IMG/VR virus record: IMGVR_UViG_3300031857_000254
Coordinates: 1-53,562 of that record
Length of the DNA stretch: 53,562 nucleotides
Source: a virus
Taxonomy: Duplodnaviria > Caudoviricetes
Strand: one strand, 5' to 3'
Below the pieces are notes generated by a model. That model worked only from the letters and a program-made list of their open reading frames with translations. It searched no databases and had not been told where the DNA came from. A program made the position numbers and the translations under genes. Positions 3,422-7,410 of the stretch are shown here, one piece after another; the stretch's first letter is position 1; each line of letters opens with the position of its first letter.

Positions 3422-6400
3422 TGTTTGAAGATTTTTACATGCCACAGTTTGATGCGGACTATTTCAATAGCCCCGCGTTTCAGCAGGCCATTGCTGCGGC
3501 TGTGCAACAGTATTCTCCAGCTCCCGTTGAGCCTGTGTATTATGCGCCGGAGCCGGTGTATTATGCACCGCCGCCTGCTCCAGAGATCACTGCCGGTATT
3601 GGCGACATTCCTCAGTATATGGTTGAGGATTACGGCCTGATCGGTGGAGCGCCAGATCGATTCACAGCGCCGCAAATATCAGCTGAACAGTTGGCTGCAG
3701 AGCGCTATGCTGCAGATCAGGCAGCGCAACAGATAGAAGCTCAGAGAGCAGCTGCTGAACGCTACGCCGCAGAACAAGCGGCAGCACAGCAGGCGGAAGC
3801 TCAGCGTGTCGCTGCAGAACAGGCCGCCGCAGCGCAGTATGCCGCTCAGCAGGCTGAAGCACAGCGCGTAGCGGCAGCACAGGCAGCCGCAGAACAGGCA
3901 GCGGCACAACAGGCAGCCGCCGCCGCTGAAGCCCAGCGCGTTGCCGCAGCCCAAGAACTGGCTGAGAGAGCCGAGGCCGAAAGAGTTGCAGCGGAACGAG
4001 CAGCAGCAGCTGAAGCCGCCGCTCAAAGACAGCAAACCGAACTGAATGAAAGGCGCGCCCAAGCAGCACAGGCAGCCGCCGAACGCGCAGCTCAGGAGCG
4101 AGCTTTGGCAGAGCAGGCCGCAGCTCAGGCTGCAGCAGAGGCTCAGGCCGCAGCACAGGCTCAGGCTGAAGCAGCAGCACGGGCAGAGGCTCAGCGCGTT
4201 GCTGCCGCTCAGGTTCAGGCTGAAGCGCAGGCACAAGCACAAGCAGCAGAGCAGGCGCGTGTTCAAGCAGCACAGCAGGCAGAAGCACAGCGTGTTGCGG
4301 CGCAGCAAGCAGAAGCTCAGCGTGTTGCAGATGCACAAGCCGCACAGCGCGCTGCTGAAGTGCAGGCAGAAGCACAGCGGGTTGCTGCCGCTCAGGCTGC
4401 CGCTGAGCGCGAAGCTGCAGAACAGGCATCTATTCAAGCAGAAGTGGCTGCCCAAGAACAGGCGCGTGTCCAAGCGGAACAAGCCGACGCAGTTACTCCA
4501 GCTCCAGAACCAGTCTTTACGCCAGAGCCGCAGCCATTGAGCGGAATCGGTCGCAGTGTTGATGAGAACTATTATGTGCCTGAGGTTCAGGCTCCTGAGC
4601 AGATATACACGCCTGCTCCAGTGGTTACTCCAGAGGCCGATGTTGTTCGCGGTATAGGAGGTAGAGAGGTTTCCGCTGAGCCTGATTATGGTTTCGTGCC
4701 AGAGCAGATCTATGCTCCAGAGCCAGTTCCCGCTCCCGTTTACACGCCTCCAGCTGCTCCTACTTATTACGAGCCAGCGCCTGTCGCGGGCATAGGTCGT
4801 GACGTAAATTATTACGAACCCGATGCCTACTATGGCATGCCTGAGGAAACATACGCTCCAGTTCCAGAGTCTGTTTACACGCCAGCCGTAGAGCCCGTGA
4901 CCGTTGAGGCTGAGCCTGTAGCTGGTATCGGTTCTCCTGCCGTTGCTGCGCCAGCCGAGGCTCCTTCGGTTATTGAGACTGCTGTGGCGGCTCCGGCATC
5001 TCCGGCTACGGCTCCCGCTGCTGGCACGCAGGTCATTAACAACAATGACTACTCGCCAAGTGATACCGATCTTCAGACCATGCAGATGTCTAGGGATCAG
5101 TGGAACGAAATGATGGCTTCGCTTGCCACGTTGGATCTTGGCAATCTGAATTTTGGTAACTTCGGGGTGACAAACCCTGATTACACAAACAATTTCAGAA
5201 CCTTCACGGCACCAAAGTCAAACAAAGGCAACCCCACTTCCACGGTGGCAAAAAAAGACAACACGTTCAACGTAATTGAAAACCAGCCGGTACGTCTTGT
5301 TGACATGAGAACCAAGAAGGTTGTCTTCCAAGGCACTGGATATGAGGCCGCTGAAAAGGCCATAGAGCTTGCTGCAGGATTGACTAAAGCGGGTGGTAAC
5401 AAGGCTGACTGGGAGATCCAGACTGGTCAATTCAAGAACCCCGGCTCTGGAGACTTGTCATTCGGGGACACCTTTAAGACCGTTGCGAATGAGAAGAGAA
5501 ATACAAGCATATTTAATCAAGCCCTTGATATTATTGGTGATGCTGCCCTTGGCTTCATCATTGGTGGCCCAGTAGGTGCGGCGATTGCTGCTGGTGCAAG
5601 TGCGGCTGGCGTCAACGTATCTGATATTGCTTATCCAATTATTGCAACAGCTGTCCTTGGCCCGGTTGGGCCTGCGGCGACGGCTGGCGCTGCTGCTCTT
5701 GGGTCTGCCGTTTCGAGCGCAGTTCAGGGCCGCTCCATTGAGGAGACATTGATACGCGCCGCAGCGGCTGGTGCGACAGCGGGCGTTATGTCGGGCACTG
5801 ATATTGGTGGTGATATTTCAGAAGCTGTTGGTGGCGTTCTCAAGGATATTGGGGTGGAATCTCAGGTTGGAGACATCATAAGCGGCATCGGAGGAAGTGG
5901 CACTGTTGATGCAGTGACTGGTGACATTGTTATCAACGCGGCCACTGACGCGGCGGTATCCGCAATATCTGCGGGAGCAACTGGGGCCGCTGTTAGCTCT
6001 GCAGTTGTTGATGCAGTCCAGCAGGTTGTGCCTGACTATCAACCAAGCCCAGAAACAAACGCTGCCCTTAATAAACTTGATGAGGCGGCAGCAAATTCGG
6101 CTGCGGTTGCGGCAGATCCAACAATTGTTGTTTCGGCCAACCCGGTTACGACGGCTGTATCTGGAGCGAACCCAATTGTGGAGACGGCAGCTGGTGTTGC
6201 AGGCGGCTTTGCAGGTATTGGCGACTTGGTTAATTCGCCGGAACTTCAAGACGCACGCGCTGAAGAGCGGCAGCCAGAAGTCAAAGAAGATATAGTTGTC
6301 ACGGCCACGCCGGAACCCGAAGTTATTCCTGTTCCTGAAACCGCTGGTATTGGCAATATTATTCCTGTCGAAATTCCGCCTTCGACGGTTTCGACTGAGC

Positions 6401-7410
6401 CTCCTAAGGAAGAAATTGTCGTCACAGCTCCGGAGTCTGATGTCGCTCCTATTCCAGAAACAGCTGCAGGAATTGGCGGGATTCCGCCTATTAATACAGC
6501 GGTCACAACCACTCCGGCGCAACCAGTGGAAGAGCAGCCTGTCGTCGAAGAACCCAAGGAAGAAATCTTGGTCACGGCCCCAGAGACTACAACTCCGCTT
6601 CCTGATGTTGCCGCTGGTATTGGCGGTGGTATTCCCGGCGTTGAAGACTTAATCAAATCGCCTGAGTTCCAAGAAGATCTTGCTGATGAGCAGGCGGGCA
6701 AAGACAAAGATAAGTCCCTATTGGAAAAAATAGGCGACGTTGCTGATATAGTACAGGTAGCTGCGCCTATAATCGGAGGCGTTATCGGAGGCGGTGGTGA
6801 CGGTGGCGGCACGATTGCCCCAGATACCAGCAAAATAAACTTCACGAAAACCACGCTGAGGCCGACTATTCCTGTAGGCGGAATCGGTGGTGTTGGTGGC
6901 TATCCCTATACGCCACAGACTTATGGCCGGCGTGGCGGCGATCAGGAGACAGAGTATCTGTTCTTCACCAAAGATCCTGTGACGGGACAAGAATTATTGC
7001 AGTCTGCCCCTGCACCTATCACTACACCTATTGCAAATGAGTCTGCTGGCCCAGCGATGATTCTTCCATCCGGAAACACTTTTGCTGAAGGTGGCGAAGT
7101 CGATGATGATATGGTAAAGCATCTCGTCGAGTATCATAAGAACGGCGGTCATCAGGGCCCCGGACAGGTAAAGGGCATCGGCAGCGGTCAGGACGATAAG
7201 ATCCCGGCGTGGCTGTCCGATGGCGAATATGTCTGGAGCGCGCAGGATGTTGCTGATCTTGGTGATGGATCAAATGATGAAGGCGTGCGCCGTCTTGACA
7301 AAATGCGCCAAATGGTGCGTCGTCAGGCTGGACGTAAGGATGTAAAAAAGATTGCAAAACCCCAGAAGGGTATAGATACAATGCTTAAAGCTGTTGGAGG
7401 ATTGGCGTAA
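3421..7410 (+). CDS. Large internal/ejection protein (Ala/Gln coiled coil, hydrophobic segment, IVVTA repeats, C-terminal GPG..IPAWLSDGEYV domain)
   Basis: 1329 aa ORF; C-terminal FAEGG..GPG..DDKIPAWLSDGEYV resembles a motif in tape-measure/internal virion proteins; position after gp10-like gene. Confidence 0.75.
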   Translation: MFEDFYMPQFDADYFNSPAFQQAIAAAVQQYSPAPVEPVYYAPEPVYYAPPPAPEITAGIGDIPQYMVEDYGLIGGAPDRFTAPQISAEQLAAERYAADQAAQQIEAQRAAAERYAAEQAAAQQAEAQRVAAEQAAAAQYAAQQAEAQRVAAAQAAAEQAAAQQAAAAAEAQRVAAAQELAERAEAERVAAERAAAAEAAAQRQQTELNERRAQAAQAAAERAAQERALAEQAAAQAAAEAQAAAQAQAEAAARAEAQRVAAAQVQAEAQAQAQAAEQARVQAAQQAEAQRVAAQQAEAQRVADAQAAQRAAEVQAEAQRVAAAQAAAEREAAEQASIQAEVAAQEQARVQAEQADAVTPAPEPVFTPEPQPLSGIGRSVDENYYVPEVQAPEQIYTPAPVVTPEADVVRGIGGREVSAEPDYGFVPEQIYAPEPVPAPVYTPPAAPTYYEPAPVAGIGRDVNYYEPDAYYGMPEETYAPVPESVYTPAVEPVTVEAEPVAGIGSPAVAAPAEAPSVIETAVAAPASPATAPAAGTQVINNNDYSPSDTDLQTMQMSRDQWNEMMASLATLDLGNLNFGNFGVTNPDYTNNFRTFTAPKSNKGNPTSTVAKKDNTFNVIENQPVRLVDMRTKKVVFQGTGYEAAEKAIELAAGLTKAGGNKADWEIQTGQFKNPGSGDLSFGDTFKTVANEKRNTSIFNQALDIIGDAALGFIIGGPVGAAIAAGASAAGVNVSDIAYPIIATAVLGPVGPAATAGAAALGSAVSSAVQGRSIEETLIRAAAAGATAGVMSGTDIGGDISEAVGGVLKDIGVESQVGDIISGIGGSGTVDAVTGDIVINAATDAAVSAISAGATGAAVSSAVVDAVQQVVPDYQPSPETNAALNKLDEAAANSAAVAADPTIVVSANPVTTAVSGANPIVETAAGVAGGFAGIGDLVNSPELQDARAEERQPEVKEDIVVTATPEPEVIPVPETAGIGNIIPVEIPPSTVSTEPPKEEIVVTAPESDVAPIPETAAGIGGIPPINTAVTTTPAQPVEEQPVVEEPKEEILVTAPETTTPLPDVAAGIGGGIPGVEDLIKSPEFQEDLADEQAGKDKDKSLLEKIGDVADIVQVAAPIIGGVIGGGGDGGGTIAPDTSKINFTKTTLRPTIPVGGIGGVGGYPYTPQTYGRRGGDQETEYLFFTKDPVTGQELLQSAPAPITTPIANESAGPAMILPSGNTFAEGGEVDDDMVKHLVEYHKNGGHQGPGQVKGIGSGQDDKIPAWLSDGEYVWSAQDVADLGDGSNDEGVRRLDKMRQMVRRQAGRKDVKKIAKPQKGIDTMLKAVGGLA
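3680..4485 (+). repeat. Degenerate coding repeat (AEAQRVAA / AAEQAAAQ units)
   Basis: Many copies of gaagcNcagcgNgt; long Ala/Gln/Glu helix. Confidence 0.85.

Follow-up and report, generated by a model that had tools for sequence, protein, structure and literature searches.

A TonB-box-like array in a putative DNA ejection protein of a Caudoviricetes virus

In TonB-dependent transporters, which combine a β-barrel with a Plug domain, the TonB box stands just after the signal peptide in an unstructured segment. Group B colicins, pesticin, the Pseudomonas pyocins, and the ColM-like bacteriocins carry a TonB box of their own, located in a disordered region, by which the host motor pulls such a foreign protein across the outer membrane, and they are the closest functional analogue of the phage protein described here. 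The TonB box of colicin M is mentioned in the accessible part of PMC5358913. We analyzed the IMG/VR virus record IMGVR_UViG_3300031857_000254 over its whole length of 53,562 bp (the window; 98% complete according to CheckV), in which a protein of 1,329 amino acids (aa), P0001, displays in one of its linkers three canonical boxes of the form E-[ED]-I-[VL]-V-T-A. Our best reading of this array, to which we assign a probability of roughly 45%, is TonB-box mimicry. Piracy of the TonB box is known from bacteriocins; its extension to phage entry proteins would, on this best reading, be the new part. P0001 has in common with the transporters the seven-residue core and the unstructured segment around it, as well as K or R at the +2 position in variants of its family. 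It differs from them in being a phage protein with an internal array (approximately residues 950 to 1050 of 1,329), with three copies, a Pro/Glu flank instead of S/T followed by R/K, and a pairing with a GIG motif. In contrast to the bacteriocins, which are soluble toxins with one box near the N-terminus, it would be a structural protein with membrane helices and an array of boxes, and there is no homology between them.

Envelope crossing by ejected phage proteins, and the energy source behind it, are largely obscure outside a few model phages. The podovirus ejection proteins T7 gp14/15/16 and P22 gp7/16/20 presumably exit the capsid and extend across the envelope. P0001 resembles them in its large size, in its hydrophobic helices, and in adjoining a gene annotated in PHROG as a DNA ejection protein, although no similarity in sequence or fold is detectable. 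Precedents for an entry protein that engages a periplasmic or periplasm-spanning host protein are the filamentous phage g3p, which binds TolA, and the HK97 tape measure, which needs FkpA and PtsG; their host partners are different, and they use folded binding domains, whereas P0001 would use a short linear motif. We found no description of a TonB link of T7- or P22-type ejection proteins in the literature searched, nor of a TonB box on any phage virion, ejection, or tape-measure protein in the full-text literature searched, outside which most subscription journals lie. A report of TonB as the receptor of phage BUCT603 was discarded as a precedent, the insertion being, in the accessible part of PMC9294509, in a gene for a TonB-dependent receptor.

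As a yardstick, the Plug domain was searched in 41 alphaproteobacterial genomes, 25 of them with a match, and the 67 transporter segments preceding a Plug match (27 from the loci and 40 fetched) were submitted to a de novo expectation-maximization motif finder with random starts and no seeding with the phage peptide. The consensus obtained from these N-termini was EEIVVTASR, positions 1 to 7 of which are the EEIVVTA of the phage. An earlier reading of the window from its letters alone (the sequence-only reading) had recognized the peptide as a TonB-box consensus, and its identity to the core learned from alphaproteobacterial transporters bears this out. Scores were computed on the seven-position core, with a transporter median of 13.9 and a lower quartile of 10.2. 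The same reading had counted five box-like copies. All five strands start precisely at the positions that it gave (Table 1), but only three are strong boxes; TIVVSA is weak, and DIVINA should be regarded as a non-box, because it falls outside the 12 best scores and within a predicted α-helix. The form DPTIVV[TS]ANP recurs among homologues. As a whole, the motif in P0001 is real and statistically strong.

A chance origin of the three strong boxes is excluded. P0001 has three windows at or above the transporter median versus none of 14,834 in the other 60 open reading frames (ORFs) of the phage, and unselected phage ORFs (at least 100 aa long, from 65 viral loci comprising 614 kb that had been collected for an unrelated control pattern) have a single one in 183,216. 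When the whole of P0001 was shuffled, at least one window reached the median in 0.9% of 2,000 permutations, and three or more in none. Shuffling residues 890 to 1100 alone gave at least one hit in 1.2% of 5,000 permutations and never three. Recent tandem duplication was also rejected as their source. The three box units have only 46 to 52% nucleotide identity (ungapped), their box codons are synonymous but different, and Tandem Repeats Finder detected no repeat in the P0001 gene beyond position 4397; the box peptide has therefore been maintained rather than recently copied.

The structural context was evaluated with an AlphaFold2 model of P0002, a homologue of 931 aa that is 88% identical over the query region and has four box-like strands (44 aligned sequences). 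The model has a confident α/β domain at residues 190 to 290, helices at 295 to 496 over the Gly/Ala hydrophobic region, and a segment at 497 to 670, containing all the boxes, with a predicted local distance difference test (pLDDT) below 50 and no secondary structure. The box region is thus predicted to be disordered, as fits a docking peptide. A long Gly/Ala hydrophobic segment had been described upstream of the motif array; it is indeed there, at residues ~701 to 811, and in the model the boxes fall within the predicted disordered linker that follows the hydrophobic helices. No PDB structure matched the fold of the P0002 model at an E value of ≤0.001.

If the boxes are TonB mimics, the virion would extrude P0001 into the periplasm of the host, where the strands would dock onto the TonB C-terminal domain by β-strand addition, in the manner of transporter and bacteriocin boxes. 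The protein would thereby be hooked to the ExbBD-TonB motor driven by the proton motive force, which might pull it through the outer membrane and periplasm toward the inner membrane, or anchor it across them, with several boxes providing avidity or successive grips. Periplasmic exposure, TonB binding, an energetic role, and a ratchet are what we infer from the motif and its setting. TonB boxes act as β-strands, and proline substitution abolishes their function, according to the accessible part of PMC9586334. We rejected a phage-encoded TonB-like partner for P0001, having found no TonB C-terminal domain among the phage proteins.

A family search with P0001 residues 560 to 1329 as the query found 208 proteins, all metagenomic; counts over 120 homologues refer to the 120 listed of these 208. 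The transporter median is reached in 64 of the 120 (125 windows in total), 33, 15, 5, 8, and 3 homologues having one, two, three, four, and five such windows, respectively; 84 have a window that reaches the lower quartile. In an alignment of 30 sequences (29 homologues), identity to P0001 was 47% in the box columns, 52% in AGIG, and 31% in the rest of the linker and spacers. It had been anticipated that homologues would keep the motifs while the spacers diverge. This holds for the 64 homologues with one to five copies and for the difference between 47% and 31% identity, but not for the other 56, which have no median-grade window. Across 121 proteins, the 245 windows that reach the lower quartile are found in 153 distinct contexts. 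In 90 of these windows the residue at +2, a position left out of the scoring, is K or R, and R/K is also what transporters prefer there; among the family variants, IEPIVVTATK and EDTIVVTGTR, for example, are similar to the transporter boxes EPTVVTANR and APVVVTGSR. Four loci (L082:3898-6489, L019:7837-9660, L026:159-1847, and L111:4199-5623) encode proteins with a P0001-like N-terminus and folded domain and a different C-terminus (...NPNIADYERYGFGPEAMFFQPGY...). They carry IPEEIVVTGTRPTEVDLGGVLGAL repeats, so that the box array persists while the C-terminal domain and GIG are replaced.

Outside this family, DNA encoding EEIVVTA was found in at least 119 stretches of IMG/VR, versus 65 for the reversed peptide. 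These counts are too close to be taken as proof of enrichment, a use that we rejected, and the contrast lies in the carrier proteins. Among the matches listed, 84 forward ORFs of at least 150 aa grouped into 36 clusters; 20 cluster representatives were annotated for the forward peptide and 10 for the reversed one, and 8 of the 20 forward representatives had no PHROG match. Two clusters (24 of the at least 119 loci) are real transporters with Plug domains, and another comprises the P0001 family and relatives with the same N-terminus. Four unrelated clusters are tape measures with an internal box (L027:9250-11319, L115:3-2564, L021:4046-5410, and L060:1-1818); these carriers often read LEEIVVTAQ[KR] and are devoid of GIG, and that of L115 has two tandem boxes (KLEEIVVSGRRIE...PLEEIVVTAQRVE). 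There is also a PHROG tail protein with the box at its extreme N-terminus (L010) and a protein that matches virion-structural and tail-protein families and starts MATEEIVVTAQK (L017). The ten reversed-peptide representatives include two primases, a terminase, and a kinase, and no tail protein. The bias of forward carriers toward tail and tape-measure proteins, drawn from small numbers among the matches listed, is suggestive only.

Other carriers of the heptapeptide deserve mention. The box stands at the extreme N-terminus in L010:230-1513, L017:1983-3434, and L117:545-1852 (METELEEIVVTAKP, MATEEIVVTAQKN, and MTDVIEEIVVTAKRP), a layout that recalls the N-terminal TonB boxes of bacteriocins. An endolysin-family protein (L030:1105-1944) has an N-terminal extension, GEEIVVTAPRPTPAPVAPA, before its catalytic domain. 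About 10 loci (L068, L008, L029, L073, and others; L063 and L101) encode Pro-rich phrog_9426 proteins of ~160 to 210 aa that read PVPKEEIVVTAATTAAVSVVAT, with the box running straight into a hydrophobic helix. The transporter loci found on viral-classed contigs (L099, L006, L007, L009, and 17 more; L044, L076, and L105) have the signal peptide, box, and Plug, and could be phage-carried genes, prophage flanks, or mis-binned host DNA.

Several observations weigh against TonB-box mimicry. In P0001, boxes 1 to 3 are followed by TP, PE, and PE, where transporters have S/T/Q and then R/K. Within the family, apart from the 56 homologues without a median-grade window, 36 of the 120 do not have even one at the lower quartile, and box-less homologues carry ATVTG, ATVIGG, or GEIVAEAP variants at the place of the box, in units such as PPAATVTGLKTTPGAGIGG or GEIVAEAP...AGIG. 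On viral contigs, the forward heptapeptide exceeds its reverse by a modest margin at most, and it occurs in cytoplasmic phage proteins, namely, a single-stranded DNA-binding protein (L056) and a primase-like protein (L061), because of which EEIVVTA is not diagnostic alone. Phage T1 is the classic case of a TonB-dependent phage. Scanned with the matrix, its tail proteins (the tape measure, the gpJ-like and minor tail proteins, and the fiber) have no box (best score, 7.4), a weak negative because the matrix is alphaproteobacterial. The presence of P0001 in the virion would follow solely from gene order, and the host may be an alphaproteobacterium. A scan of the genome collection gave one locus, L002, a contig of 5.7 kb assigned to an alphaproteobacterial bin. 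A single TonB gene of this bin exceeds the cut-off, and its one transporter has a box region unlike the phage motif; we rejected L002 as evidence of host-specific mimicry.

A further objection comes from the GIG motif that accompanies the boxes. An AGIG motif had been noted after the last three copies, and we find [T/A]AGIG 17 to 18 residues beyond each of these boxes. There are 12 GIG in P0001 (positions 3595, 4543, 4651, 4789, 4924, 5884, 6214, 6346, 6469, 6616, 6880, and 7174) versus 8 in the remaining ORF products of the phage (15,194 residues), and those of P0001 include copies in N-terminal linkers where no box occurs. In the family, G[IV][GA] follows 197 of the 245 windows within 60 residues, mostly at 9 to 24. 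We know of no TonB box that has a GIG-type motif as a part of it. This pairing suggests that the strand and GIG are a two-part unit, possibly with another partner. As a side observation, a Pro-rich stretch usually precedes each GIG of P0001, and every listed homologue has 3 to 12 GIG, one copy being invariant within the C-terminal domain.

The main alternative, possible though rather unlikely, is that strand, Pro-rich spacer, and GIG form an assembly or docking repeat for a partner other than TonB. This might be strand exchange between ejected copies during channel formation, a core or portal protein of the phage, or, in the host, a periplasmic or outer-membrane component such as Tol-Pal, Bam/Lpt, or peptidoglycan-associated proteins. 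The likeness to TonB boxes would then be convergence, because all such partners use an exposed β-strand. In addition to the abundance of GIG in P0001 and its regular position after the windows, such a repeat would account for GIG columns conserved at least as well as the boxes (0.52 versus 0.47), for the ATVTG...GAGIGG units kept by box-less homologues, and for the relatives with another C-terminus, which pair EEIVVTGTRP with LGGVLGAL. However, it leaves unexplained the identity over seven residues to the transporter consensus, the K/R preference of the family at +2, and the LEEIVVTAQ[KR] of unrelated tape measures that have no GIG.

The evidence for TonB-box identity applies equally to a decoy, in which injected boxes would titrate TonB and shut down TonB-dependent uptake instead of powering the entry of the phage itself, blocking superinfection by TonB-dependent phages or bacteriocins or disturbing the envelope. 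A molecule with several boxes would have a higher titration capacity, and Llp and Cor exclude other phages by interfering with TonB-dependent transporters, according to the accessible part of PMC9586334. Nevertheless, the few copies ejected per cell would titrate a cellular protein poorly, the gene is located in the virion and ejection module and not among early genes, and the tape-measure and tail-tip carriers suit a role in entry better, making a decoy quite improbable. Least probable of all, with hardly any weight in our assessment, is a by-product without a specific partner, arising by old duplication in a low-complexity linker rich in Val, Ile, Thr, Ala, Glu, and Pro within a highly modular, repeat-prone family, since linker shuffles and the phage-ORF background practically never generate such an array, the box is conserved above its spacers, and the peptide was kept while the unit DNA diverged.

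With TonB-box mimicry as the preferred reading, a wider proposition can be formulated, although we consider it doubtful: in tailed phages of transporter-rich hosts, the first proteins to exit the virion (ejection, tape-measure, and tail-tip proteins) may widely bear TonB-box mimics, by which the TonB-ExbBD motor of the host, powered by the proton motive force, would draw them and hence the DNA conduit through the envelope, with arrays being successive handholds.

The coordinates of the features are collected in Table 1. P0001 is best explained as a modular, largely disordered envelope-penetration protein, ejection-protein or tape-measure-like, and is probably injected into the host by the phage. 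A Pfam search of the protein gave no family at an E value of ≤1, its sole PHROG match is to tape-measure families at residues 1247 to 1307, and a search of the ESM Atlas with residues 1150 to 1329 matched only unnamed viral clusters. The Ala/Gln-rich tract had been compared to a TolA helix. This part of the sequence-only reading did not survive, as the likeness is one of composition, there is no Pfam match, and comparable tracts are confined to 9 of the 120 homologues, so membership of TolA was rejected. Because of this scarcity, the tract is an optional module; P0002 does not have it. DNA tandem repeats are located within it, at 3765 to 4397, and one guess is that it may tune the length of the protein.

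Table 1. Features of the P0001 gene and its neighbors in the window (strand + throughout)
Feature	Positions	Strand	Basis or remark
Virion structural protein gene, 535 aa	1019..2626	+	phrog_3287; 5' neighbor of the P0001 gene
P0001 gene, 1329 aa, modular	3421..7410	+	ORF list and translation
N-terminal segment, MFEDFYMPQFDADYFNSPAFQ...	3421..3510	+	Conserved in alignment consensus; common to L082, L019, and L026 (other C-terminus)
Ala/Gln-rich tract, residues 86-358 (273 residues)	3676..4494	+	47% A, 21% Q, 13% E
Tyr/Pro-rich linker with four GIG (4543, 4651, 4789, 4924)	4495..5100	+	P0002 equivalent pLDDT <50
Small folded α/β domain, residues ~595-696	5203..5508	+	P0002 residues 190-290, pLDDT >90
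Gly/Ala-rich hydrophobic helices, residues ~701-811	5521..5853	+	Putative membrane-inserting segment; sequence and P0002 predicted helices 295-407
DIVINA	5923..5940	+	Outside top 12 matrix scores; within predicted helix 429-448 of P0002
PTIVVSA (TIVVSA from 6121), weak strand	6118..6138	+	Score 10.7, about the lower quartile of transporter boxes
Box 1, EDIVVTA	6286..6306	+	Score 16.4; in predicted disordered region
GIG after box 1	6346..6354	+	AGIG columns 52% identical in 29 homologues
Box 2, EEIVVTA	6409..6429	+	Score 19.7, equal to the highest of any transporter
GIG after box 2	6469..6477	+	Position after box; AGIG column identity
Box 3, EEILVTA	6559..6579	+	Score 17.4; same heptapeptide in two sampled transporters (EEILVTAQK)
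GIG after box 3	6616..6624	+	Position after box; AGIG column identity
Gly-rich tract IIGGVIGGGGDGGG	6769..6810	+	GGGGGGG kept in alignment consensus
Near-invariant C-terminal domain, FAEGGEV...KGIGSGQDDKIPAWLSDGEYVWSAQDV...	7081..7407	+	Holds most invariant alignment columns; PHROG tape-measure match
DNA ejection protein gene, 309 aa	7410..8339	+	phrog_4287, E=1.5e-13; 3' neighbor of the P0001 gene

The phage encodes a terminase, portal, capsid protein, RecET, helicase, primase, and endolysin, and its large plus-strand genes form a run at 1 to 18.3 kb of the window. No tail-tube or sheath family appeared among the PHROG matches of the 26 window ORFs scanned, and no tRNA genes, sought for host assignment, were found. 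The P0001 gene lies in a structural/ejection module whose synteny is kept in L002, and the upstream gene is also present in the Caulobacter phage GB2A. The flanking proteins are well conserved in L002 (70% identity for the phrog_3287 protein and 84% for the phrog_4287 protein), the former being also 50% identical to GB2A gp067c. In contrast, the central protein of L002 (2900-5077) has 725 aa versus the 1,329 of P0001 and is 46% identical in its best segment. P0001 is thus encoded by a hypervariable gene flanked by conserved neighbors, a pattern expected of a host-interface protein. HNH endonuclease ORFs, likely homing endonucleases, were also seen among the structural genes, at 2523 to 3173 and 3 to 515; one of them shares ~100 nucleotides with the 3' end of the virion structural gene.

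A tblastn search of 50,697 phage records gave matches only in four Caulobacter phages, via the C-terminal domain. GB2A shares the gene order around P0001, with the 580-aa gp065c, annotated as a tape measure (L260:5498-7240), at the place of P0001. The folded domain is 32% identical to residues 26 to 130 of gp065c of GB2A (E=2e-9), and the C-terminal domain is 47 to 48% identical to its counterparts in GB2A and RW (E=4e-13 for GB2A). The gp065c of these two phages has, as P0001 does, a folded domain, Gly/Ala hydrophobic region, Pro-rich linker, and C-terminal domain in this order. Unlike P0001, it is only 580 aa long, has neither the Ala/Gln tract nor GIG, and contains one sub-median box-like strand, found in its Pro/Thr-rich linker as VDEIVVTPSQP (score, 11.9) together with VDELVIKPP. 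The N-terminus of GB2A gp065c reads MMGDEILVVDP. Phages RW, RLK, KcrB, and GB2A infect C. vibrioides and are placed in the proposed Riverwalkvirus, their gp065c/gp066c being called "tail length tape measure protein," in the accessible part of PMC11053796, where TonB has no occurrence. Judged by sequence, the structural module of the phage is related to these Caulobacter "Riverwalk" phages, which fits the alphaproteobacterial host hinted at by the sequence-only reading.

Having a Caulobacter relative such as RW or GB2A makes the TonB idea directly testable; C. vibrioides CB15 carries more than one TonB paralogue. If the boxes bind TonB, they would constitute a host dependency independent of the receptor and open a resistance route via tonB/exbBD. 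Part of the mosaic hypervariability of the gene would be explained, and the boxes would provide a signature for host prediction, as box dialects differ between bacterial groups. The entry of the phage would also be mechanistically tied to colicin import. Were this true of tailed phages widely, phages would have their own equivalent of group B colicin import, and there would be a molecular reason for energy-dependent entry.

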